Origin: Welwitschia mirabilis
Taxonomy: Eukaryota
Assembly (NCBI GenBank): GCA_051453625.1
Contig: JBOZIK010000001.1
Location: 45,280,422-45,313,743, forward strand
Length of the DNA: 33,322 nt
Reading direction: 5' to 3'
A program made the position numbers and the translations under genes. The notes under the pieces were generated by a model. The model worked only from the letters and a program-made list of their open reading frames with translations, was not told where the DNA came from and searched no databases. Positions 749 through 33,322 of the stretch are shown one piece after another. Every line of letters begins with the position of its first letter. Position 1 is the first letter of the stretch.

Positions 749-1475
749 GTGATTGAATAGGGATACCAACTAAAAAATTAGTTTAACGAAAACAAATTAT
801 TTCTACAAGTTTGAATCCTTTAAAATTCAAAACATATATTGTAAATAAAATAAAAGAAATAAGAGAAATGGAAACAGCCAAAAAACACAACAGATTGATA
901 ATGGTCTAGTCCAAGCCTAGTCTACCCTCAGGAAATCAAATCTTAGTTCCCTACTTTCCTAAACTTCACAAAACTAAAACAGAGCAGTGATTTCCTAAGT
1001 ACAATCACAATTATCCTTTGCAGTGAGCAGCAGTAGTACAATGAGCATTTTCTGACTATGGCTCAACCAAAACCCTTGAGAGAAGACAAAAGAATGTGCC
1101 TAGAATACACAATTGCAAATAGTGTATTGAGAAAAAAATTAGCAAAGAGGAAAGAGATCCTAAAGAACAGCAAAAATATTATAGTAGCAAGCCTTTTGAA
1201 ATGATATTTCAAACTGCTGTACAAAGAACAAATTCGTAACTGTTTGAGATAAATGTTCCAAAAAAATGGTTCGTTGAGTCCATGAAGTGCATCTGGGCAA
1301 CACTTGAAAGGCCTTAAAAAACAAACAGCCAGAAGTACTTCAACTATAATACAACTTGTTTAAGCCCTAGGGTGTTGAATAGGGTGTAAAATTAAAGTAA
1401 TGAACATACAAAGAACATACAAAGAAGTTCTATAATGGTTTGGCTTGCTCCTTGCTCCTACTCCACCCTTAGGGA
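749..1475 (-). mobile_element. Two degenerate copia (SIRE/Maximus-like) LTR-end fragments
   Basis: The motif pair TTGAATAGGG ... ATAATGGT..G...CCTA.TC.ACCCT occurs twice (749-932 and 1367-1475). It resembles the reverse complement of copia LTR 3' ends (CTATTCACCCCC motif). Motif recall only. Confidence 0.35.
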
Positions 1476-2318
1476 ACACATGCTTTTCTAGCTAGTTCTC
1501 TTCAAGAACCACCAACAACTTCAGTCAATGGTGTTACATAGGACAGCCATGAAACCCTCTAAAACAAGGAAAACATTCTTTAAATCTGTTAAGGATAAGA
1601 TTCAAACTTTTGAGATGAAAGGAATGTGGACTAGAAATGCCTTATAACACTTGTTCCGCCTTCCTCACTCTAATGATAGGCAAAATCTATAAGCTGCTTC
1701 CCTAAGCTCCTTGACTTCGAAGGGCCTCCCATGGCATAGATGGAACTTAGCATATCAACCCAAACTTGGGTTAGCTCTTTTAGGGTTAAGTCTCAATAAG
1801 TTGTTTGTATGCAACATGACCTCCATCAAATGAAGCATCCCTCTCTAGCTTCCTTTCTTACCTATGCACTGAGTACCCTTCTCATGTTTCTTGCTTTCCC
1901 CTTCCACTACACTTTCATGTCTTTCCACCCTTCGTCCATTGATGCCTTGCCCTATTGCCTTCCCCCTTATGTCCTCCCTTGTCCTTAAATCTTCTCTACT
2001 AACTTCCACAATGTAGTCATGGAACTATCAAGTACTCCCTTGCTTTCTATGGCTTTCCTCATATCTTCATCCTTTCTCAGACCCTTTGGCACTTTCTTTC
2101 TCCCATTTGTGAGTAGTTTCTCGTTGCCTTTGTCTCACCCTTTCTTGCCTTGTCCATATCCTAGGAGTGGAATCCATCTTCCCCAACCTCACTTCCATGC
2201 CCTAAGCATAGAAAACATTCTTTTGATAACTTCCCTCATCCTTCTACTACATTTTGATCATTGCAACTCCTCCCCTAGTCAATTTGCCCTCAAGGTGTAG
2301 TAACTCTACTTTCTTCAC

Positions 2319-2392
2319 CCTCTTGTACTATGTTATCACTCGTAGCCCCTACTCTCCTTATTTCAACCTCTTGTACTATGTTATCACTCGTA
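2319..2392. repeat. Direct duplication of 26 bp, period 48 bp
   Basis: cctcttgtactatgttatcactcgta at 2319-2344 and 2367-2392. Confidence 0.9.
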
Positions 2393-2749
2393 AACCCTTT
2401 CCTTACATAGTCCCTCATCTTCCTTTTGTCCCTGGAAGGCCTTTCGTTTTTATCCATCTCTCCCTCCTCCTATTTTCCTAACTTCCCTTTGTTCCTCACC
2501 ATTCCCATGCCCAAGGCATGGAGTTCCCCTTTTATTAGATGACTTCCATGGCCTAGATTTGGAAATGGAAGACCTTTCCCTTTAGATTTCAGAACAAGTT
2601 TTCTTGGCTTAATTTGCTAGGTTTTGCCTTCTGGCATCAATTTTTCCTTGTTTGCACCTTCAATTGATGATAAAATCACCCTTATCCCTTCTCCATGGTT
2701 CCTCTTCTCTTCACTTCCATGCGAGGGATGCCTTCCTTTCTATCAAAAT

Positions 2750-4860
2750 CTAGCAAATTTGTCCTAATTTTTGCAAGGTTTTTAACACTTTATACTGTAC
2801 TTAGAGGTATTTTTATTACATTTTTAGGTAGTTGATGATGTGATTATCAAATAAGTTTATGACTATTTTGACACTTTTTGGAGCATTTCTCGATGATTGT
2901 GTTTGAAGTTGACAATGATGAGATTGAGTAAAGATGCAGTGAGATACTCATAGAGAGATGGAGACCTCTTGGATAATCATTTGACTCATCCGCTGCTTAC
3001 ATGAGACCTTGTTGATAAGCTTGATTATGTGATGAAGTGCCCTTCAGCAATCCAATATCGATTTTGACGGTGACTTCCTGGTCATCATAACTGCTGACAA
3101 TGACTCCTATGTAATTGAGATAATTTATAATGAGCTCCTACAAAGTTTACATGATTTCTACATTGTACTTGAGCTTGAAGTGATAATCCAAAACTTTTAA
3201 CACATGTTTTCAACAATTTCAGACCTTCCAATAGTGTCAAATTTGTTAATTTTTCATGTTTCGAAGTGTCAAGCATTGAAATTCGACCTAGAAAGTTATT
3301 GTATGACCTAGTAAGGTGTAAATTATAAAATTTCAAATTTTGGATGGCGCTATAGTGCCACTAGTGGCATTATAAGACCAACCACCCGACTTACTTAGTT
3401 TTCTAACTTGCAAGAGTGGTTCAAAACGAGGTTTTTCAATGTCCAATCAGTTTTAACTGAGACTTAACTCCTCCTAGCACATTATAATAAATCCTAGATT
3501 CTTTGTCCACAAACAGAAATCATCTGCAAGCCATTTAATCTCTTTTGAAGCTCAGACTCTGTTGATTTCTTCAGTTTTGGAATGAGTTTGGACCATTTTC
3601 TGTTGTTGCAAATAAATTCTACCATTCTTTCTCCACTTTCTCACTTTTTTACATCATTCTCTAGCATTGAAGTCCACTTTCTTACCCTTTGACCTAGAAG
3701 GAGGCTTCAAAAGGTTCGAGATGGACCCATTTTGCCAGTTTTGAGGCATGTTGTGGCTAAGCATCGGCTTGTAAGCATTTAAATTATTCATGATCGATAA
3801 AGAGGTATTTTTCCCTCAACTAAATGAGCTTATCACTTGCTTATCTTGCATTTTATTTTAATGTTTTCATATCTGTATTTGGCATTTGCAGCAGTTTTTT
3901 TTCTTGCTTTTTTTTTCCTGTCAAGTTTTTAGCATTAAGAGAGAGTAAATGTTAATGTTTGAAGGTTTTGCACGAACTTATATTTTATATGAGATTATTT
4001 GAAATAGAAGTAGAATAATTTTAATATAAATCTCTAAAAAAGTTAGATTGTCTATTCGTTTCTCTTGTTTTTCTGTTGTTTTACATTGAAGATTATCATC
4101 TTTCATCTTGAAATGCCACTCGATTAGTTACAAATCTTCTCTACTTTATTCTTCTAATCCATTTTATTGTAATTTGACTATCTCCATGCTTTTTCTCTTT
4201 GTTTTTATTTCTAAAAATAATTTGTCAGCCACTTTTTTGCTTTTTTCATGAAAATTATTAGTTTTAACCATGTATTTTTAACCATGTATTTCACCTATAA
4301 CTTCAATTTTAAACAAAACAAAACAAAACGGAAAAAAAAAACCTCAAAGACCATTGCAGTATATAGCTTTACTACAAGCTTAATTTCCTACAACTTTGTC
4401 TAAATAAGTCTTTTTCTGTTTCTTCTTAGAAAATTCACAAATTGGCATTGCTTCTTGATTTATAGTTTTCCTACAATTTTCTGCTTGCAATTTTTCATAT
4501 AGTTTGATTTTTTGTGTTTTATTCTTGAATCAAATTAGAGTGTTTTTCTACAAGTGAATACTTGATGTTCTAGTGAATTTTGTGAACTTTTAGAATGTCT
4601 AATTAAATTTTATTAAATGTCAACCAGTTTCTTAGTATTTGAACTTGAAACAAGTCTCTGGATATTGTTTTTGCATGTTTCAGTTAACATGCTTTTTCTT
4701 CATTTAGTTGAGCATTGCATTTCTGACTTGGAAAAACTTCCATTATGGGATGGTAGATTAGAATATTAGATTTGGAAAAGCTTTTGAATGCCAAATTATT
4801 TCTTCCTATTTTCTCTCTCATACTTTCTTCTTCCAATTGTACATAAAATGCATGTTCATA
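2750..4860. mobile_element. Probable decayed Ty3/gypsy (Athila/Tat-type) LTR sequence; boundaries uncertain
   Basis: Non-coding, T-rich stretch. It contains chained GGCGCTATAG(C/T)GCC-type palindromes at 3345-3374 and a TATA-like TTATAATAAA at ~3482. No termini or TSD could be fixed. Confidence 0.3.
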
Positions 4861-4957
4861 CAGCTAGTACGTTACACAAAATGTTGTACATAGGCTTGTG
4901 GTTGTTAGAACTACAATATACATCAATGAATGTTACTAGATGATTATTAAGATTAAG

Positions 4958-5763
4958 NNNNNNNNNNNNNNNNNNNNNNNNNNNNNNNNNNNNNNNNNNN
5001 NNNNNNNNNNNNNNNNNNNNNNNNNNNNNNNNNNNNNNNNNNNNNNNNNNNNNNNNNNNNNNNNNNNNNNNNNNNNNNNNNNNNNNNNNNNNNNNNNNNN
5101 NNNNNNNNNNNNNNNNNNNNNNNNNNNNNNNNNNNNNNNNNNNNNNNNNNNNNNNNNNNNNNNNNNNNNNNNNNNNNNNNNNNNNNNNNNNNNNNNNNNN
5201 NNNNNNNNNNNNNNNNNNNNNNNNNNNNNNNNNNNNNNNNNNNNNNNNNNNNNNNNNNNNNNNNNNNNNNNNNNNNNNNNNNNNNNNNNNNNNNNNNNNN
5301 NNNNNNNNNNNNNNNNNNNNNNNNNNNNNNNNNNNNNNNNNNNNNNNNNNNNNNNNNNNNNNNNNNNNNNNNNNNNNNNNNNNNNNNNNNNNNNNNNNNN
5401 NNNNNNNNNNNNNNNNNNNNNNNNNNNNNNNNNNNNNNNNNNNNNNNNNNNNNNNNNNNNNNNNNNNNNNNNNNNNNNNNNNNNNNNNNNNNNNNNNNNN
5501 NNNNNNNNNNNNNNNNNNNNNNNNNNNNNNNNNNNNNNNNNNNNNNNNNNNNNNNNNNNNNNNNNNNNNNNNNNNNNNNNNNNNNNNNNNNNNNNNNNNN
5601 NNNNNNNNNNNNNNNNNNNNNNNNNNNNNNNNNNNNNNNNNNNNNNNNNNNNNNNNNNNNNNNNNNNNNNNNNNNNNNNNNNNNNNNNNNNNNNNNNNNN
5701 NNNNNNNNNNNNNNNNNNNNNNNNNNNNNNNNNNNNNNNNNNNNNNNNNNNNNNNNNNNNNNN
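4958..5763. other. Assembly gap (806 N)
   Basis: N-run; the 24-mer tactagatgattattaagattaag is present on both sides. Confidence 1.
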
Positions 5764-6930
5764 GTACTAGATGATTATTAAGATTAAGTAGAAATGAAAG
5801 ACAAAAGAGAAAATGTAATGGTTGAAGCATTATAGCCTATGTTTCTTAGAGTATTGGCTGATTAGGGAGCTCTCTTGCATGACTTCCCCTCAAGCAAAAT
5901 GGCTTTAGAACCCTTGATGGGGCATATTTGATCATATCCAACGTAACAAAAAGTGTTAACCCATTGTCTTTGACTTGGTCTTATTACACTTCATGCACAT
6001 TTTCTTTAAATCCAAGGCTCTTTCTTCACAAACTCTAAACCAATAAATAGAACATGGGGCTTTATAACATTCTGATAGAGACCACACAAGAAAAGCCATA
6101 TGGAAAAACAAATACTTCTAATTTACTTATTTCATACCACTGATTTACTTCTCCTTGAATTTTCCTGTCGAAATATCTTATTCTCTTTCAAGTGTTCACA
6201 AATCTTTGTTCTCATACCATGGTTATAAAAGCAAACAACAAAAGTTTTAAGGAAAAAATAATTATTCCTAATCTATTTACTTCTTATTCAATTTTAATTC
6301 TTGAATTTGTTCTGCCACTTAGTCTCTTCTAGTTTTTCAGAAAACTTAACTCTCATACCACTTTCTTGTAGAGAACCCAACAAAAGCAAAACATCCAGGA
6401 AACAAATATTTGAATGAGAGATCTTTCTTTATTTTGAGCCAACATCAACAGAGTGGATAGCTAAGTGCCTTTCCAAGACAGTAATAAATGTTTCCTAGTA
6501 CAAATTCTCCCTCACAAAAAGGAAAGATGGTGCATGAGAGATCAAGAGTTAAGTAAATCTTGTATCAAAAATAGGGTCAAGGTTTGTCTTCAGATCCTCT
6601 TTTGCTAGCTAAGAGAAACTGGAATGTTCATCTTTTGAGGAGAGAGATTCCTGTTACTAAAAGCAGTTTCTCCCTAAAACTATCCTGGCTTTGAATTCAG
6701 ATTCTCCTTCTTGGGCACACGTTTATTTAGTTTAAGCTAAAGTTAGCATAAAAAATGTCAACATCACCTGATTCAAAATGCATGGAATAAAGGTATAAAG
6801 ATTTTTTTAACGTTTCTTAGTTTAACTGATAAGAATGCTCGTCCTATAGAAATGGACACGTAGACTTTCTGCTATCACATCTTGTATTCATTAGAAATTG
6901 ACAAATGGGGAAAAAATGATTATGCATTAC

Positions 6931-12247: not shown

Positions 12248-13692
12248 ACAAAACCCTCCTTTTCATTCTTAGTCCTTATCCTCATTCTTACTTTCAATGT
12301 ATCCTACTCCATTTGCTAACAAAACCACCTAATTTTTTAATATAACAAATCCCCTCCTATTTTGTAATTTAATGGCTCCAAATCTTTTCCCTTATTCAAC
12401 ATCCCTTTTTTCTCTTCTTATATGTACCCCCTTTCATATACCTTTTTCTCATATGTTTCTCCTCTCCCCTAATCCTTTGGCCCTACCTTCCCATTTGCAT
12501 TACTCCTCTTCTTTGTCTATTAACAAGATGAGTAAGATCTTGTTCAGTAAGAGCTAAATTGCTATCTTGAAGGTAAAAAAAAAGGTCTAAGATCTTCTTT
12601 GACATGAGCTAAATTACTACCTTTTCTCGAGGACATCTACTTAAGGGTGGTATTCACCATATTTAACTACATAGATAACCTTATAATATGCTTGTGTTAG
12701 ATCACACTATTATTGTAGTCTTGAACTGAATAAATGCCTCATGGTTTTGAAGGGCTAACTATAGGATATTAACAAGAAAAAAATCATGATTGTAAACGGC
12801 ACTTGTTGAGGTCTTGTGAAAAGGAAATCGCTAGAGAGTAGAGGCAAAAGTAAAGCTTGTTGGGTCATAGCATTGGCAGACAATGAGCAAATGAGAAACA
12901 TGTCTACTAGAGGTGTTGTGTGAAGTAAGTTATTCAGTGTTTCAATGCCCAAATCTTGGACAACTACATTGTTTGTTAGCATTGAAGGAGAACAAGCCTT
13001 GGAGGTGAAGGTAGAAATAATGTTGGCGTGCTTTACTATAAGGAAAGAAGAAGGAATGTGAAGTGCCGAGAAGGACTAGCGTCAGAGGTGCACTCTGTGG
13101 CTTAGGCAAGACAAGTGAGGTGCCATGAAAAGATGTTACCTAGCATCTGCAAGGGCAGGTATTAGACATCTAAGTCACTTGCTACAGATGCTAGTGACTC
13201 ATGAGGGTTGCAGAGAAAGTGAGGAGATGGAATGAAGGAAGTGAGATCGTGTATAGGATAAGAGATGATAGGGTAAGAAGGGAGGATGATGGGTTAAGAA
13301 AAGAAGAGGAAATGGGAGGGTGAGAAAGGATGGGTTAAGGGAGGTAGGGAAATAAATTGCAGGGGGATGTGAGGAAGGGAATCGTTTAGTTAAACCAATC
13401 CCAAGAGAGAGGGTGGCTAAGGAAATTAGGGAAGAGGGAAGGTAAATGGGAAGGTGGATCCAAGGGATCAGGGGATAGAAAAAATGTATGGGAAGAAGGG
13501 AAATAGGAGGGGAAACATATAGGAAGAGAAGAAAGAAATGTTGAATAAGAGAAAAGATTAGGATCCACTAAATTAGAAAATAGGGGAAGTTTGTTATATT
13601 AAATAATTGTGTGGTTTCGTTAGAAAATGAAGTAGAATACATTAATTATGAGATTGAGGATGAGGACCAAGAATGAGAAAGGGTATTTTATG
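12248..13692. mobile_element. Non-autonomous foldback / Mutator-like (MULE) element with ~250 bp terminal inverted repeats
   Basis: 12248-12497 aligns by eye, at roughly 75-80% identity, to the reverse complement of 13443-13692. The ORF track shows the symmetry too (MAPNLFPYST... on plus vs MDPNLFSYST... on minus). No transposase and no clear TSD. Confidence 0.7.
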
Positions 13693-15196
13693 ACACCCAG
13701 TCTTTTCTTATCCTAATTAAGTACTATATTTTTTTCCTCTTTTTTTCCTTTCTCTTTCTTCATTTTTAAATATTATTACCTAATAGACACAGTGGAACCT
13801 AGGATCAAATTTCACTTATTCCTTTATTAGCATTTTCATATTTTGAGAAAAATAAATTATATTGATTTTATATATTTATCTATAATTGATTCCTAGGTTA
13901 TTTTGGTTTATAAACAATAGCGATGTCATAAATTTGTGTCCTTCATTTCTTTCTATTTTTTCATCACATAGAAAGATATCTTGTAAATTTTTGAGGAGAT
14001 GTGAACATGTTATAAACATACATGGATAAGTTTAAAGATAATACCTAACTAATATAATAGAAGATTAAAACTCCCATTAATGATAGTTCAACTTGATATC
14101 TAGTCACCCTTTAGATGTGAGCTGGTTCTACTTCAGGTTTTAAACTATACAAATATGGCTGGGCTTAATTTCATAAGATTACACTTCAGTTTAATATAAC
14201 CTCAATATAGGTAACAAGCACTATGTGAGGTGGATGCATGCTTACGTCCTTGAAACATATTTGCATAGTGCAACATGATCCATCGATGCCAAGGGCTTGA
14301 GATATTAAGTTGAAGTAAGTTCATACATGGGAAAGGATCTCTATATATAGATAAACAAAAGGTACATAGCTTAAGATCACATGACTTATTATTAATAAGT
14401 GGGATGAGTAATAAGTGACATTAGAGTATAAAAAGAGATTATATTTATGACTCATGCACCTAACTAGGATGAGTAATCTTCTTACTTTAGTTAGCAAGAT
14501 TAGTTAAATGCATCATTTTCTCATGCTAGCTCCTTCTTAATCCTTCATAGGATCATAAGTAAGTTTAATTAATTTAAGACATGTATCAAAAGAATAAATA
14601 CACAAATCTCAAAATTGTCATGTGGCATAATGAGGTGAACTCTTCAATTCCAATGATTAAAATAATAAATATACTATGAATCAAGTGTCCTTACACATCT
14701 GAAGAAGATAGAAATCATATTATAATAAATCTACTGATTTATCATTCTTAGTTCTAGGTAAGAGTGCATATACCTGTTCACATGCTTATTTATTTAACAA
14801 TGCATAAAATCTATTAATCATATAATATAAGGAAGAAAATGTCTATTCATAACAAAGTATACCTATCATATTTACCAAGAATTTAAATGAGTAAATAATA
14901 TGTAAAATATATTATTATGTCTTCTTAAAATTTTCAATTTATCAATTTTATCACGTGATTTTAATTCTTTACATAATGGGGTTATCTAATTTTAAATGTT
15001 TAAATAGATTTTCTTATAAAAACCTTCTAACATAATTATTATCATTTTTATGCTAAATTATGAAAAATACAAACTGAGGTTAGTTTAAAATACCATTTTC
15101 TTTTGATAAAGGCTTTTAAAAGAGTAATTCATCATCTAATTAAAATCTTAATATACTTAATATCTAAGTAATTAAGATATATAAAATATGATGTAT

Positions 15197-15817: not shown

Positions 15818-16773
15818 TTTTTTTTTTTTTTTTTTTTTGAAAGAAAGTTATGTTTTCATTTCATATAAAAATCAGTTTATGTACAAACTCCTTCAAAACC
15901 ACAAAATAAGCTACTTATAGCCAAAACAGCTAAGGGTAAACAAAAATAAAACTATGGATAAAAAAAATGAAACTATGTGAACTGAGGCTGAATGAACATA
16001 AGCTTGCACCAAGTCATGTTCTTGCTATTCCTCTTCATTTTAGTAATCCCTGCCAATTTTAGCTTAAATTGAAATCTGAATTCAGCCATAACCTCTTGCA
16101 CATTAACAATCTTACATCTAAAAACTGCATGATTTTTGACCCTCCATACTAAATAAGGTAGACAAGCAAAGCAAGCTCTGATGATCTTGTCTATGGCATT
16201 GTTACTGCCATATTCATCAAATAACCAGCTATACAACTCATTCCATGAACATGAAGGAGGAGAGATATGCAACAAACTCATAGCTTGGGATAGCACATTG
16301 ATGGAAAACATNNNNNNNNNNNNNNNNNNNNNNNNNNNNNNNNNNNNNNNNNNNNNNNNNNNNNNNNNNNNNNNNNNNNNNNNNNNNNNNNNNNNNNGAT
16401 TCTCTCTAGTCATTATTCTATCCAAGCAGGTAAGCCAACATATAAATCCATGTTTAGGAATCATAAACTTACCTCAAGAAACTATGGTCCATCTCTGTCT
16501 AATCCCTGGAGTTATGATAACAGAATATGCTATAACAGTAGTGAAAGAAACACCTCCCGCAATCCAAATTGGGTTATGAGATGGCCGCACACACTTGAGT
16601 GCTTCATTTCTGAGTTTGAGAATCTTCTTTATGGGCTAAGAGGTCTGTTTCTTAACCTCAAAAGCCTAGAAACTAATCCTACGGAAGTAATATTAATGCA
16701 CCCACTTCACCCACAAGTTTTCCTTCCTTAAAGTGATGTCCCAGATCAAGGTAAGAATTAAAGTAGAGTTGAA
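15818..16773 (-). mobile_element. 5'-truncated L1-clade LINE (3' end of ORF2, 3' UTR, poly(A)) with target-site duplication
   Basis: T21 at 15818-15838 is the poly(A) on the minus strand. The minus frame reads IWDITLRKENLWVKWVH*YY...IPKHGFICWLTCLDRIMTREN...YLVWRVKNHAVF, typical of the plant L1 ORF2 zf-RVT region; the zinc finger itself falls in the gap at 16312-16397. Flanked by aaagattgatctt (15807-15819) and aaagattgacctt (16774-16786). Confidence 0.9.
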
Positions 16774-25023: not shown

Positions 25024-25114
25024 TTAATGGAGAATCATGAAAAGTGATTTTAAGACTAAAAGGCCTTTTTTAATGGAGAATCATGAAAAGTAATTTTAAG
25101 ACTAAAAGGCCTTT
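25024..25114. repeat. Tandem duplication, 46 bp x2
   Basis: ttaatggagaatcatgaaaagt(g/a)attttaagactaaaaggccttt repeated with one mismatch. Confidence 0.95.
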
Positions 25115-26279
25115 CATTTTGCTTAAACAGAGTTTAATGGTTATGTGTGAATTATGGTGTGAGATCCTTGTTCTATATTCCACTGTAAGATTAAAAAAAT
25201 AAATGAATAAGATTTTTATGTTGTAATATAATAATTATTTTTTGGTAACTAGCTATGACTCAGAGGATATTTGGGATCCAATTGTTCCTTAACATAAATT
25301 TTAATTTTCACAACTCACAGTGAGAAGAGTGTAATCACTATTAGAGGAGTAAGGGTCCATAATCAAATTGATGCCTAAATGGAGCTCTTGTAACTATCTA
25401 ATGTAGGACATTATGGTGTTAGCCCATTTTTACCCTTTTTTTAAAATAAATATATACACAAACAACTCATCTTATGATGGAATATTTATCAAGTTCTTAT
25501 GAAATGAATAATGCATAATATTTTGTTTAAGACTTATCATGATAGTCTGTTATTTCCAAAAGGATTCATAATTATCTCTCATAATCTGAAAGATTGAATA
25601 TGTATAAGAAATCTTTATGAGAAGCATTATCTATTTTAGTTATGCTTATGAATGAAGTGGGAGTATTCTGTCCACTCTAAAAAAGTTTTCTAAATAATCT
25701 AGTAGAGATTTAGGATCATTATAAATTATCAATCTTTGTTCATTCATGTGATAAGTTATCTTTTCATTAGAGTTATATATGTCAAAAGCTCTATTTCCTA
25801 GTACTTTAGTTACTATAAATAGCCCAAGTCAATTTAATATGTATTTCTATTTTGAGTGAAGCTTTTTGGATCATAAACTAGTACCGAATCACCTTCCTTA
25901 ATTTCTATTTTTCATAAGTTACTATCATGATTTAGCATGAGTTTTATTTTTAAAGGGCTTCTTTTCTATACTCATCTAAAATATTTATATTTTCAATATA
26001 TTTTTCTTGAGATTTATCTAAATCATATTTTATTTCCTTAGCTAATTTAAAAGTTTAATTCTAAACTCTATTGATAACATTGCCCTTTTCCCATAAACTA
26101 ATTTATATGATGTGAAATCCTATACTATGTTTGCAAGTTATTCTATAAGCCCCTAAGGCTTCTGTAAATTTTTTTGCCTAGTCTACTTCCTTAATATTGA
26201 TAGTTTTGATTAATATTCTATTTAATTTTCTATAGGTTACTTCTACTTTTACAATTTTTTTGAGGGGTTTGGCCCCAAT

Positions 26280-27380
26280 ATGGAGAAGGCTCAACTTTTC
26301 AAGTAAGAAAAATCCCTTATTTTAGACATCGATGAAGATGCCTATAATGAGACTAAGAAGAAACTCAGATACAGTCTAATTGGAAAGTTCGTCTCTTCTG
26401 GTTCTTAACTAAGGTTGGATTGGATCTATGAATGGGTTGCTACTAAATGGACAGAAGTTAGCAAAGTTGTTGTTATTGTAATTCCAGAAGGATCGGTATT
26501 ATTTCAACTAGATAATGAACAAGATCGGGATAAAATAATTGTGAGAGGATCTTGGTTTTTTAGGGTTCGTGGCCTTGCACTAGCCAAATGGACACTGGGG
26601 AAGCAATCAGACCCAAATCTATTTAAGAGAGTTTTGATCTAGAACCGCATCCACAAGTTCCTGTTGGAGTTTTGGGATGAAGATCTAGTAAGAAAAATGG
26701 CAGCTCAGTTTGGTAAGTTCATCAAACTCGACAGGATCCATATTAAACAGACAAGATTAGTGTTAGCTAGATTTTGTGTTTGGATGAGCCTAGAGGATAC
26801 CAAGTAGTTCCAATCTGTAAAGTTTAGATCTAAATGGGATATTTGTAAACTTGATGTTACTTACGAGAATCTTATGATCCCTGGCATAGTCTGTGGAAAA
26901 TTAGGACATCTCTCTGGAAAATGTAATCCTCCTAAAAAAATATGTTCACATTGTGGAAGATTAGATCATTTAAGAGAAGAAGGTAGAAAAAGATGATTGA
27001 GATTTAAAAAATCTAAAGGAAACCTGTACTTTTTGTGAGAAAACTGATCACAATCGTAAATATGCTAACATAAGCAAAGGAAGGAATAACCCGGGAAAAA
27101 GTACTACTATTTTTCCCAAGGAAACCAAGGACAAGAAGAAAAAGGAAGCACTAGAACTGGAGCATAACCACTTTAAACCTCTTGTGGAAGAGAATACACC
27201 CAAAAACCTCTAAATGATGATGAACCTAACAAAATGGAAACTCAAACAAAGGGAAGGCCCAACAATAGAACTCTCTGAGAATGAGAAATGACAGAGAATG
27301 TTACAAATAGTGCCCAAGCCATTATTAAAGATACCTTAAGGAAAGGTCAAGTGCCCAGAAAGGGGCATAAACACCCCTAA
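26280..27380 (+). pseudogene. LINE ORF1 (DUF4283-type RRM-like domain plus CCHC zinc knuckles), interrupted by stops and frameshifts
   Basis: From ATG 26280: ...YSLIGKF...WVATKW...FQLDNEQDRDKIIVRGSWFFRVRGLALAKW...VLI*NRIHKFLLEFWDEDLVRKMAAQFGKFIKLD...ARFCV...VTYENL..gIVCGKLGHLSGKC..CSHCGRLDH. Confidence 0.88.
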
Positions 27381-27382
27381 CG

Positions 27383-30300
27383 AATTATCTCATATGGAAT
27401 TACAAGGGATTAGGATCCTCCTACAAGAAAAAGACCCTACAAAACATGATTAGTCAATATAATATTGATTTAGTTTGCTTACAGGAAAAGAAGATAAAAA
27501 ATGATATGAGAAAAATAAATTTAGGGTAATAATGGACTTCTTTCATTATTGCAGCCCAAGGTAATTCTAGTGACCTTATGATTTCTACCACAAGAGAGGT
27601 AGATTTGATTCACAGTAGTAAGAACCACGTCACAATTCTCCTTAAAAAGGAAGGCTAGATTGTCATAAACCTTTATAGTCCCCAACATAATCAAGATAAG
27701 GCCTTTATCTTGAAAGAAGCTTAGAGGACAGTAGTAGAAAAATCCAAATGGCTCATCCCTGGTGACTTCAATCAATATCATCATTGCTGGGAAAAATCAG
27801 GGGGCGATAACCATAATTCCAAATGTACCTTAATACTAAAAGAATTTTAATAAGACACTCCCTCACATACATTCCTATTGCTAGGTGTAAGTATACATGA
27901 TCGAGTAAAAGAACAAGTAAAGATCTGATAATGTCCAATATTGACAGAGTTCTGGCTGGGAAGGATTTAGCTAAACTTCCATTTGAAGCCTGTGGTCTAA
28001 ACAGGATTTCTTCAAATCACCATCCTATCAAACTCAAATTGGGGGCAATTTTGCCCTAGAAAGCTTCATTTCGTATAAAACAGTATTGGATTAACCAGAC
28101 AGAAACTAAAGTGCTATTAGAAAAAATATGGGCATAATATGATGGGACTTAACCCATAACATTCTGTATAGGGGCCTTAATACCCTAATAGCTTACATAA
28201 GAGATTAGAAAAGGAAAGATAAAGAGAGGTTTGAATAAAAAACTGAGCTTGAAGAGGAAATCATAAGAATCCAAACTGAGCAAGAGGAGAGAGGTAATCA
28301 GGACAATCTATAGATCAGAGAATATCAATGCCTAATGGATATCCAAGAAATAAATGCTGATGAAGAACATTATTGAAGAGAATGCTCAATGATCAAATGG
28401 CTAAAAAAGGGTGACAAACATGCTAGATTCTTCTTTTAGTAGGTTAACCAGTACAGATCAGATAACAGGATCAAAAAACTATCCATATGAGATCAAATCA
28501 TAGAAAATAAAGAGGATATAGCTAACGAATTACATGCACATCTTAAGAGAATCTAGGAATGAAAAGATATTGCCTCTAGCTTAATTCCAAAAAATAAGAA
28601 AATCTTGAGTGTAGATAATGACATGTTGACTAAACCTCCGAATAGAGAAGAGATCTTCTTTGCTGTCAGATCCATGAAGAATAACCAAGTCCCTTGCCAT
28701 GATGGCTGGCCAGTCAAACTTTTCAAATCCCACTTCTCTGTTTTAGGGGATAACCTTCATGATGTGATGCAGAAAGTCTTCCACAACAGAGGATTCCTAG
28801 GGAAATGAATAGAATTAGGGTGGTACTTTTCATAAAAAATAGGGATGTTAGTAAACCAGAGGATTTTAAGCCTTTAGATGTTTGTAATGTTATTTACAGA
28901 ATTTTTGTGAAAATCATGATTGGTTGTATCGCCTCCTCACTTTCCAATGTGATTTCAGAGAACCAAGCCGGCTTCATCCGATCTAGGTATATCCAAAACC
29001 AAATCTTCTTGACTCATGAGACCATTCACTCTATTAAAAAATACAAATTTTCTCTCTTTATTACTAAATTGGATATCACTAAAGCTTCCGATTCGGCTAG
29101 TTGGCAAGTGTTAGGGTGTATTCTTAGGAAAACATGATTTTTTCAAGATATTATTAATCTTTAGCTAAACATGCAGACTTCTTCCGAATTCAGTGTATAG
29201 GTTAACAACCATAGATCAAATTTCTTCTCAGTAGACAGAGGGTTGAGACAAGGGGACCTCCTATCCCCATACCTTTTTCTTTTTGTGATGAATGTGTAAA
29301 GGTTTTTCTAAGAAGGAACAAAGTTATAAGAATCAGAACTGGAGGCCAAACCTTTCTCAATAATCACTATGTAGATGATACCATCATTATAACCAGGGCA
29401 TCATATCAGTAAGCAAAAGCAATAAAAAATGCTATGAACATCTTTGCAGTGGTAATAGGGCTACACACTAACTTAAACAAATCAAGAATCCATACTTTAG
29501 GCAGAAACAGTATCAGAGGTGGTGAAATCACCCAGATCCTAAGTGCAAAGTTAGGAGACTTATAGGATATCTACCTAGGTATTCCTCTTCAAAATTGGTA
29601 CAAGATCAATACCTGGAAATAGATCTTGAAATCCATCCAAAGGCGGTGTAACTCATGGCAAAATAACTTGATCTCATCTAAAGCTAAAATCATTCTCACA
29701 AACTCTTGCTTAATTTCCTCTTTCCAGTATATAGCTTTAGTTATTACCCCCTTGAGAAATATCATCTAAAAAATCAATAGAATTTTAAAGGATTTTATTT
29801 GGTCAAGAGGAAAGGATCGCCATTGAACTCATCTCTGTAAATGGGAGACTATTATTTACCCAAGAGAATCATGGGGTTGGGGGATTTAGAAACCAAAAGA
29901 TTGCATCCTCACTGAAGCACATAGAATTTTAAAGAGACTACAAGAAGGATGTCAACCCTGGTGTGATTTGATCAATTATAAGTACAAAGATTGAACTATT
30001 GATCATGGGGAGTCCTACCTAAGAAAACACCTCAGCAAAGCTCGACAACAACTCATTGACTTAAACATCATTCAATCTGATTCAATCAAGCAGATCCTCC
30101 TAAATAAGTATGGAAAATAAGATACACATAATAAGTATTGGATGGGACAAATTCCCAAAAAAACTAAGGTCTTTTATTGGTTAAAAGATCACTAGAGAAT
30201 TTTAACTAAAGACCAATTGCTCAAAAGGGGATTCCAAATGGACACTAACTGTTTCATCTGCCAGTCCAATCCAAAAACAACACAACATTTATTTCATCAC

Positions 30301-30470
30301 TGCTTTTAGAGTAAAGAATTAATTTCCATTATGACGAAGTACTATCAAACCTATAATGCCTCTGACATGCATTTATTGGATGTGATCCACTTGAAGTTTT
30401 GGTAGGTTTGACGAATCAGAAATGATCTAATTTTTAATAACGCCATCTATCCTTTCCTACAAATACAGTA
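27383..30470 (+). pseudogene. LINE ORF2 (APE endonuclease, reverse transcriptase, zf-RVT), many stops and frameshifts
   Basis: IWNYKGLG (27392); DLVCLQE; WLIPGDFN (~27749); SNIDRVL; SSNHHPI; WLKKGDK; FKPLDVCNVIYRI; ENQAGFI; KLDITKASD; RGLRQGDLLSPYLF (~29238); YVDD (29368); YLGIPL (~29572); CFICQSNPKTTQHLFHHC (~30250); RIRNDLIFN (~30412). Confidence 0.95.
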
Positions 30471-30479
30471 AGGAGGATC

Positions 30480-31735
30480 ATGCATCTTTACTTCCAAATT
30501 AGAGTCATGATGGGAGCCACACCAACAATTGAGCCTTTTGATCTAGACCTCTTCGAAGGATGCCCTATTCTATGGGAGAAGTTGTAGGTGGTAGGATGGG
30601 GACCCCTCCTTCATAAGCTTAGAGGAGACTAGGGGATGATATCGCCTCCTTTTATAGAAGTTGGAGAGAAGGAGGCACCACATTCCAAAGAATTCCAATA
30701 GAAATCACTGAAGACTCCCTCTCCAGACTATTGGAGATCCCTGTAGAAGGAGAATGGATTCCATTTAGAAGTAGAGCGTAATGCAAAGCACTCCACTTCT
30801 TCCCTGTGGGGTTCCTAAATTACTAAGCAGGCACATCAGCAGAAAGGCACTACTGCCCCCTGGGACTAGGTGTAAAGCTTATGGACCATTACTTTATCCA
30901 ATCAGGGAATTGCTCTAAACTTTCAAGTATCCATTTTGCTTTTTGCAAAGATCTTGACTTAGGGTGTTAGGTGAACCTGCCATTCTTTTATATCTAAGTT
31001 CTTAAATGGAAGGATTCCTCAAGGAACTTGGGCTTAGTCTTGGCCTTTTGGAAAGAAGCACAAGAATGTAGGGTAAGAGAAGTCGCTCCCCCTCCCTCTT
31101 GTCATCCTCCTTACCAGACTCCTCTTAGGAGAACCTCCAAAAGAAGAACCTCGCCTGAAAGGAACCCTATTCAAGAGGAAACTGCTGTGCATGAAAACCT
31201 TAGCAAAAGAGAGGTGACTTCGCCCCCAAGTCATTCAAAAGAGACGTCTTCACCCCCAGCCCAACAAAAGATAGCTGAGGAGACTAACTCTGGCACGGCC
31301 TGGGAACTGCCTTAGGATCAACCATCACCAAACTCTCAGAAGTGAGGTAGGCATGCCCAGATCTCCTTTACTCCAGCCTCGGGCCCTAGCTTTCCACAGA
31401 ACTCCACTTCAGATTTTTCATTAGTTGAAATCCGACCTCAACCACAGGAGGACATTGACATGAATGTTTTTAGATGGGAGGTTTTGCTAGTAACCATTCA
31501 GGGGCTGAAGAGATATTTCTTCATCACATTGGGATTCTCTCATAGAGCCATCCCTCAGACCATTAAATCAAGCTATAGGAAGAAAGCCCTACGAATACAT
31601 CTAGACAAAAGTCCAGCAGGTGCCGAAGAAATTAAGGAGATAAATTAAGCGTTTGAAGTCCTCTTTGATGATTTAGACAGATTCCTTCTCGACCATAATC
31701 ATGGTAACATGTTCCCATTTTGTAGAGGGCTTTAA
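30480..31735 (+). pseudogene. Extra LINE-borne ORF3: plant-transposon accessory-like N-terminal domain, P/S/E-rich linker and C-terminal DnaJ (J) domain; decayed
   Basis: ATG at 30480/30507. After a frameshift near 30632, one frame runs to TAA 31735 with scattered stops; track ORFs 31028-31315 and 31460-31648 share this frame. The C-terminus reads YFFITLGFSHRAIPQTIKSSYRKKALRIHLDKSPAGAEEIKEIN*AFEVLFDDLDR. Confidence 0.75.
31514..31690 (+). pseudogene. DnaJ/Hsp40 J-domain coding segment (HPD mutated to HLD, one premature stop)
   Basis: Colinear with the J-domain consensus Y.vLGv...A....IKkaYRklAl..HPDK.....eefkeIn.AYevL.D...R across all four helices. Confidence 0.85.
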
Positions 31736-33322
31736 TCCTCCCCCCTCAGGTCTGTTGCTTATTAAAATTGAGTTTTTTGTAACTTATGGTCTTAATGGGC
31801 ATTTTCGCCCCCAGTCTGTCAGTAGTACTATGTTTTTTTTCTATGCTTTTACTCTTCTAGATAAGCAGTTTCCTATGACTATGTCGTCGAGGGGTGATTT
31901 CACCCCCATTTTGTTTAGTTTCTCAGTTCTCCCTTTACTAGCTAGTGGACTACTTCTCTTTTTCTGAACAGTTTAATCATCATGTTATTCCTGGGCGTTT
32001 CGCCCCCTGATGTACATTTTCTAGCTTAATACATATACTTCTTAAAAAAAAAAAGGAAATTTTACTTCATATCCCAAAATGTAATACCATATTTTTTTTA
32101 ATGACATAACTACTACTAATAATTCTTTTTACATAACTGTATAATTCTATTGAGCTGCTTTGAAATTTTTGCTAATATAAGTGTAATGTCCTCCTTTAGG
32201 CGATCTCAATCTCAAGTTTTTACATGACTATGTTTGTATAATGGTCATTTTAAACATGTAAAATAGGAACAAGACATTGTAACGTGGGATGTAGTTTAAA
32301 CATATCAGATCGTAGTTATCATCATTTCTTTTGATTATTAGATTTTAATATGAATAGCTAAAATATGCATGTTTATAAGTCGTATTAATCATAAGCAATA
32401 GTATGTTAGGTTAGATAATTAGGAAGTAAGTTTAGGTGTAATTACTAGATCATGTTATATCTATAACTTGGCCTTATATTTAATGAGAATATAGTCTCGT
32501 TGTTTGCTTGGTTTACAGTATAGAGAAGTTTTGCTAATGAGACTTATTGTTATAAATAAGGCATAATATGTGCTATTTACTCTAGCTATATCAATTTTCT
32601 TCAACGTAACACCTTCATCATATTACTTCATCCATAGTTTACTTGTCTAGATAATATCTATACATACCTGTGTTAACTTAAACATGTATAAAACAATGTT
32701 TAGATTAAATAAGTTTAGTAGTTAGTACTTAATTGTCCTTTTTTAGTTATGAGTGTAAAGTGTTAAGTGTTAGAAAAGTCTTATGATTAATCCATATTAC
32801 TAATATGTACTAGGAGGGAATCAAACGCGCGACCAGTCCCCTCTCTAAGACTACCTTGTAAGTTGCTAATTTCAGTAAGTTTTAAATTCACATAAGGCAA
32901 ACCAATAGGAGTCGGACCCTAGCAATTACTGGGGTTTTTGTTGTGAAATTTTCATCGGCGGTTGAGGCCTCGGCCAGGAAGGCCGCGTCCATAGGCAAGT
33001 GCGGTTCAGAAAAGCGGAGACGTTAGTAGGAATTTCAAGCTAGACTCAGTGCAGAGGGCGGTGGTTTGTTAACAGTGCCAGAGGAACCGCGGGGGAGTGC
33101 AGTGGGTGAGAGAAGGGAAGGAATACTAATGGGATGCAAAGGCACGAAGCATTACCGGAGCGTTGCGGCATTGTGACGGGAGACCGCAGATAGGCAAGCG
33201 GGAGGCAGCGAGCAGCTGCAAGGATGGGTGCAGTCCGAGATGGTGCAAGGTAGGGCATTGGCAGGAAGGAACCACAAGCAAATGTGAAGGAGTAGCAAGG
33301 GAAGTGAGCGTAGACGAAGGAC

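Follow-up and report, generated by a model that had tools for sequence, protein, structure and literature searches.

A J domain in the transcribed unit of an L1-type LINE family of Welwitschia mirabilis, seen in a decayed copy

The LINE and its 3' extension

We analyzed a stretch of 33,322 nucleotides (nt) from Welwitschia mirabilis (assembly GCA_051453625.1, contig JBOZIK010000001.1, forward-strand positions 45,280,422 to 45,313,743), which we call the window and number from its first letter. It contains a long interspersed nuclear element (LINE) of the L1 type, whose second open reading frame (ORF2) is followed, ahead of the poly(A), by a further frame (ORF3) that ends in a J domain of the DnaJ (Hsp40) type. 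The copy in the window encodes nothing, since the extra frame holds nine stops and one frameshift and its J domain reads HLD in place of the His-Pro-Asp (HPD) motif. Across short contigs from other copies, the linkage of ORF2, ORF3, J domain and poly(A) is common to the family, and a LINE variant with a host-derived J domain in its transcribed unit is new. No description of a LINE with a J domain was found in the literature, which we searched by titles and the starts of abstracts, with most subscription journals outside its scope. The features of the locus are as follows.

26255 to 26279, + strand: likely 5' boundary and short 5' untranslated region (UTR) of the LINE; contig ends pile up just before 26255
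26280 to 26996, + strand: ORF1 remnant with an ATG at 26280, DUF4283 and a weak CCHC knuckle; 3 stops in 196 codons
27401 to 30510, + strand: ORF2 remnant with a weak endonuclease match, reverse transcriptase (RT), zf-RVT and C-terminal tail, over three frames
30507 to 30778, + strand: ORF3-N, the conserved head of the post-ORF2 frame, which matches the transcript ORF P0002 and is broken by two stops (30585 and 30630) and by a 1-nt frameshift near 30632
30779 to 31459, + strand: spacer in the same frame, partly Pro/Ser-rich, with 6 stops including the TAA at 30779 and the lowest, most indel-rich contig cover
31460 to 31735, + strand: J-domain cassette, with an ATG at 31460, the J domain at 31517-31696, HLD at 31598-31606, an in-frame TAA at 31646-31648 and a closing TAA at 31733-31735
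31736 to 32043, + strand: non-coding tail on the 3' side of the repeat unit, where the ORF3 frame meets 9 stops over 102 codons
32044 to 32054, + strand: poly(A) of 11 A, which closes the repeat at its 3' end, with a collapse of contig depth behind it
32060 to 32185, - strand: Ty3/gypsy RNase H fragment, the insertion context; RT_RNaseH_2 at 26.8 bits and RT_RNaseH at 24.1 bits, each slightly below cut-off

The part from 26280 to 30510 is a decayed, same-strand L1-type LINE. In Pfam searches, ORF1 matched DUF4283 at 26424-26780 (61.7 bits against a cut-off of 27.2) and, below cut-off, zf-CCHC_4 at 26808-26927 (16.7 bits). Within ORF2, RVT_1 at 28844-29296 (48.1 bits, cut-off 29.6) and zf-RVT at 30094-30318 (56.1 bits) both scored above their cut-offs, and the endonuclease was represented by two matches below cut-off in the expected place upstream of the RT, to Exo_endo_phos at 27401-27814 (17.7 bits, cut-off 24.5) and to Exo_endo_phos_2 (16.1 bits, cut-off 27.4). 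Given that the Pfam matches of the LINE are scattered over three frames, the window copy must have suffered many frameshifts. No tandem array was detected inside the LINE (26255-32054), the sole detection being a 12-bp double just upstream, at 26210-26233.

At 80% likeness, we mapped to 25800-32600 the contigs from three DNA runs (X1 to X3, carrying two organism labels) together with unassembled reads from one RNA run (X17). Matching stops just before 26255 in 103, 68 and 75 contigs of X1, X2 and X3, respectively. The upstream flank (25800-26253) is itself highly repeated, with a summed depth of 1182-3351, and contig ends accumulate a second time at 26115 (141, 129 and 89 contigs), where either the 5' UTR of the LINE may begin or another repeat may abut.

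At the other end, the element contains a single + strand run of at least 8 A, at 32044-32054. The first-pass annotation had placed the only poly(A) at 32044 and none between ORF2 and the J domain, and this held, with no such run on the + strand of 26270-32043. About 1.55 kb separates the ORF2-frame stop from the poly(A). Because the poly(A) that serves retrotransposition lies behind it, the 3' third of the family's unit (30507-32054) is copied together with the element.

The RNase H fragment directly behind the poly(A) places the LINE, it seems, inside or beside the remnant of a long terminal repeat (LTR) retrotransposon. On the upstream side, the - strand of 26060-26180 resembles, by eye, the C-terminal portion of the integrase core of gypsy elements, with no Pfam match; should the resemblance be genuine, the two flanks lack several hundred bases of the gypsy pol that would lie between them, which would imply a target deletion or two different elements.

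The extra frame and its J domain

The ORF2 frame ends with a TAA at 30469-30471, followed by a TGA at 30508-30510. In-frame ATGs after the TAA stand at 30480, 30507 and 30510, in agreement with the earlier placement of the ORF2 end at about 30470 with a new ATG within about 10-40 nt, and the ATGATG with which ORF3-N starts overlaps the TGA. The first approximately 91 codons of this frame are conserved in an expressed transcript: P0002, a 91-amino-acid (aa) ORF from a W. mirabilis transcriptome, shares 78% identity with 30510-30629 and 62% with 30623-30778. This match fixes the start of ORF3-N at the ATGATG and locates the frameshift near 30632.

ORF3-N belongs to no Pfam family. By language-model features, its nearest named families are the plant-transposon families PF20167 (0.89) and ATHILA ORF-1 (0.88), and three plant protein clusters of 88-94 aa lie nearest to P0002; we treat both results as leads only. 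The AlphaFold model of ORF3-N (mean pLDDT 51.7) was too poor for a fold search, and feature comparison gave no usable match for the spacer at 30779-31459. A metagenome scan with P0002 returned only a GC-rich bacterial contig (L001) with glycosyl hydrolase 15 and alanine dehydrogenase, which we rejected.

A frame of about 410 codons had been described as running to 31735, and in the window copy it is not open. In addition to the 1-nt frameshift, the path from 30507 to 31735 meets internal stops at 30585, 30630, 30779, 30824, 30968, 30995, 31313, 31343 and 31646, and the longest stop-free stretch is 105 codons. The extra frame does retain a coding trace, its stop count lying beyond chance: its 368 codons hold 8 stops where shuffles predict 20.4 (p = 0.0014), with 19 and 30 stops in the other two + frames over the same region. 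In three separate segments, each taken alone, it is the frame with the fewest stops among all six. Its stop density (2.2%) compares with 0.8-4.4% in the LINE's own ORFs (3 of 196, 1 of 125 and 6 of 136 codons), and beyond 31735 stops rise to 9 in 102 codons.

When this frame was read from 30452 with its stops as X, Pfam DnaJ (PF00226) matched nt 31523-31681 at E = 6.7e-8, with 33.0 bits against a cut-off of 27.8 and profile positions 4-59 of 63 covered. The J domain that the first-pass annotation had recognized ahead of the poly(A) is thus upheld. Apart from DnaJ, nothing in Pfam scored in the three + frames of 30450-32054, and there was no RNase H among them. Compared with solved structures, the domain aligned without gaps over 60 residues, best to C. 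elegans dnj-12 (E = 2.3e-10) and human DNAJA1 (E = 1.3e-8), and the motifs YRKxAL and KEINxAFEVL are present. The J domain is complete and of class-A type, and it lies in the same frame as the conserved 91 codons, about 0.7 kb beyond them.

Two defects of the window copy fall within the domain. Hsp70 stimulation requires a His-Pro-Asp motif between helices II and III, and here this position reads HLD (cat cta gac, 31598-31606, with the cta at 31601-31603); the in-frame TAA at 31646-31648 interrupts the domain further on. In other copies, position 31646 is C in 89-95% of contig depth, giving Gln instead of a stop, and positions 31611 and 31631 are A and T in 97-99%, so that the codons specify N and F, the residues that canonical J domains have there (HxDKNP..FKEIN). 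These letters indicate that the J domain was closer to its canonical form when the family spread.

A HMMER scan of 1.84 billion protein representatives with the X-read frame returned 55 matches at E <= 0.001, one of which, P0002, was family-specific. We examined 15 of the 55; the matches of the remaining 40 are confined to the J-domain region of the query (residues 205-369). Those examined J-region matches that carry source names are ordinary J domains (CbpA, fungal DnaJ). One match, to a bacterial repeat protein (P0001), concerned the Pro/Ser-rich part and was set aside as spurious. Word-based protein searches, whether a near search, a longer one with P0002 or a search with a profile, found P0002 alone.

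The unit in other copies

Each DNA run placed between 48,967 and 55,285 contig pieces on 25800-32600, mostly 80-95% alike. Summed contig depth is not a copy number, and we used its shape alone. Over the three runs, it was 2622-3745 at the 3' end of ORF2 (30340-30566), 773-4752 over the module bins (30567-31928) and 3170-6712 in the bin 31929-32155, which the element half fills. Behind the poly(A) it came to 104-305 (194-305 in the bin 32156-32382), a 10- to 40-fold fall in all three DNA runs.

Individual contigs and loose ends are cited here from the 24 pieces listed of about 155,000, none of which spans the whole unit, and from the 24 loose-end rows listed of about 12,900. Contigs of about 81% likeness bridge the ORF2/ORF3 junction (30286-30629 and 30290-30580), and others of 81-84% join the J domain to its flanks (31348-31733, 31562-31987, 31656-31995 and 31656-31978). 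If many copies had a poly(A) right after ORF2, loose ends would be expected in 29296-31420, and none occurs there among the rows listed.

These data bear directly on whether the arrangement arose once, at this locus, through one 3' transduction, through nested insertion or as an assembly error. Such an origin could be suspected of a draft window with 1292 N, in which no second copy of the LINE was found by BLASTN or tblastn self-comparison of the 33 kb and in which no convincing target-site duplication encloses the unit, the copy being old and decayed. We regard it as very improbable, given that no N falls within 25800-32600, that about 49,000-55,000 contig pieces per DNA run cover all of 30567-32054, and that ORF3-N is carried by a transcript from an independent data set. 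A junction unique to the locus, the condition under which the first-pass annotation would have failed, is contradicted by a module as repeated as the ORF2 3' end in all three DNA runs, by the bridging contigs and by the collapse behind the poly(A).

Alternatively, the J-bearing 1.5 kb, or the 3' half of it, might be an independent high-copy element, either one that uses or neighbors this LINE, such as a non-autonomous partner with a shared tail, or an older repeat that was a frequent insertion target of LINEs. Depth over the module is uneven, with a dip to 773-984 at 31021-31247; no contig among the pieces listed bridges 30630-30968; and the feature neighbors of ORF3-N, PF20167 and ATHILA ORF-1, are other plant transposons, again as leads only. 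Against a composite of this kind, the contigs that cross the ORF2/ORF3-N junction come from two organism labels, depth shows no step at the junction and falls sharply only behind the poly(A), no loose ends pile up in 29296-31420 among the rows listed, and the ORF3 ATG overlaps the ORF2-frame stop. We consider this explanation improbable.

No RNA run was listed as containing the stretch itself. The RNA run that we mapped contributed 127 reads, and since 116 of these were less than 90% alike, they come from other, diverged copies of the family. Reads matched 31421-31466 and 31605-31689, diverged on both sides, and represent low-level transcripts of other decayed copies. Differences between copies in the contig mapping are dominated by C>T and G>A. 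Welwitschia transposons have been described as having 28.8% G+C through deamination, in the part of the genome paper that we consulted (PMC8275611); the passages of that paper that we examined do not discuss LINEs.

The window as a whole has a G+C content of about 30%. The largest of its N runs (4957-5766 among the gaps) produces an apparent 8.5% G+C at 5001-6000, which reflects assembly gaps and not biology. G-over-C skew reaches +0.457 at 13001-14000 and is near zero over the rest of the window, a low-complexity, Pro/Ser/Leu-rich frame lies on the - strand at 13199-13567, and a 46-bp unit stands in two tandem copies, 97% alike, at 25024-25114. An Rfam scan of the window gave no match.

Origin and possible role of the J domain

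The J domain has an ATG of its own about 20 codons ahead of it, at 31460, and no G/F, zinc-finger or C-terminal DnaJ parts lie behind it, so that it appears to stem from a host DnaJ gene, of which it would be the 5' end. The window contains a dead copy, of about 5.8 kb, of a high-copy L1-type LINE family. Our preferred reading, which we hold tentatively and at somewhat under even confidence, is that in this family ORF3 and the J domain once coded for protein. Master copies may have read ORF3 through the J domain as one protein, a view to which we lean only slightly over the possibility that the domain was carried along as cargo.

In that second possibility, a master LINE read through into a neighboring host DnaJ gene, or switched template onto it, and the acquired sequence was amplified without function. 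The cargo would then be the promoter-proximal part of the gene, comprising its ATG, the J-domain exon and the first stretch of an intron that contains a poly(A) site, and the only true extra gene would be an ORF3 of about 91 codons. 3' transduction by L1 elements is well known, and we regard this account, which accounts for almost as much of the evidence, as a serious contender, somewhat doubtful on balance.

Several observations support the cargo account or otherwise weigh against a once-coding fusion. P0002, which is the one further copy known at the protein level, is labeled a complete ORF; its frame stops at codon 92, one codon past the window stop at 30779, and the three plant clusters that lie near it by features (a lead only) are of similar length, at 88-94 aa. 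Position 31302 is A in most other copies (98-100% of a low depth of 243-315), which creates a TAG at 31301 in the ORF3 frame. The ATG at 31460 is what would be expected of a captured exon 1, with the J domain N-terminal as in class-A DnaJ proteins, and the domain ends at GGTAAC, a possible splice donor (GT at 31704), with stop-rich sequence after it. The spacer has the lowest and most indel-rich cover, at a depth of 773-1916, with joints that skip or replace it, and 30630-30968 is the interval left without a bridging contig. HPD is replaced by HLD in the window copy, and RNA reads over the J domain, read from their loose-end letters, show a diverged copy with a seeming HQD at a 1-nt offset. 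Finally, no protein combining ORF3-N with a J domain was found among the 1.84 billion representatives, and the unit lacks a convincing target-site duplication.

Other observations speak against non-functional cargo. Over 30785-31459, the 225 codons of the spacer include 5 stops where 11.0 are expected, exactly in the frame that ORF3-N and the J domain have in common, and the sharing of one frame by those two parts would itself be a 1 in 3 chance if they were unrelated. No older poly(A) or A-rich relic was found between ORF2 and the J domain, either in the scan for runs of at least 8 A or on reading 30200-32300. The extra sequence is also present in essentially all copies with an ORF2 3' end, which is unusual for transduced cargo. 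Of the initial proposal of a tricistronic LINE family, the extra module linked across the family stands, whereas a continuous frame from ORF3 into the J domain is countered by the 91-aa P0002 and the TAG at 31301.

If master copies did encode the fusion, ribosomes could have re-initiated at the ORF2 stop to translate the protein, and its J domain could have docked host Hsp70 onto the complex of LINE protein and RNA. Recruitment of Hsp70 is a role that we infer purely from known J-domain behavior, and it would require the HPD that the window copy lacks; activation of the RT and counter-silencing are pure conjecture. In its fullest form, this would mean that a gnetophyte L1 family encoded its own Hsp40-type co-chaperone, as a third cistron starting from the ORF2 stop, with a J domain that recruited Hsp70 to the LINE ribonucleoprotein, and that it reached high copy number with it. 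We consider that full account unlikely, although by no means fanciful.

LINEs are thought to make do with a minimal set of genes and to rely on chaperones of the host. A LINE family with a host J domain in its transcribed unit would make it possible to ask, in a natural setting, whether retrotransposition is limited by the recruitment of Hsp70, in parallel with the J domains of viruses, and if the co-chaperone reading is true, the family would provide the first J protein encoded by a retrotransposon. If instead the domain is only cargo, the family shows LINEs spreading gene pieces through a giant, methylation-eroded gymnosperm genome.

The LINE shares with plant L1-clade elements its domain order on one strand (ORF1 with DUF4283 and, below cut-off, a zinc knuckle; ORF2 with RT and zf-RVT and, ahead of them and again below cut-off, an endonuclease) and its poly(A) end. 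It differs from them in the approximately 1.55 kb between ORF2 stop and poly(A), which holds a conserved frame and a J domain and no Pfam RNase H. A second LINE-like 3' end lies in the window on the - strand (15973-16473), where a frame of 166 codons, interrupted by an N gap, resembles by eye the ORF2 tail of a plant LINE; a run of 21 A (15818-15838) follows about 135 nt past its stop, as at an ordinary LINE 3' end with no extra module. This region (15818-16473) has no Pfam match and no tblastn likeness to the zf-RVT part of the J-bearing LINE.

In mammalian L1 3' transduction, and in the L1 subfamilies that bear transductions, non-LINE sequence is likewise copied along between the element's body and the poly(A). 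Here, in contrast, the extra part belongs to essentially the whole family, its frame overlaps the ORF2 stop, and no earlier poly(A) relic precedes it. The domain itself resembles the class-A J domains of DNAJA1 and dnj-12, with helices I-IV contained in the gapless 60-residue alignment, and departs from them in its HLD, its in-frame stop, the lack of later DnaJ parts and its residence in a transposon instead of a cellular gene.

Viruses also encode J domains, as in the T antigens of polyomaviruses, where the HPD is intact and function is proven. The Welwitschia domain belongs to a dead non-LTR copy and its function is a prediction, but as a parasite-borne, Hsp70-activating module it would work alike. 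Among retroelements, bdelloid LTR elements carry additional captured ORFs, according to the part of the report that we consulted (PMC5408684); they differ in being of LTR type and in the genes concerned, and like the LINE described here they are retroelements extended beyond their canonical genes.

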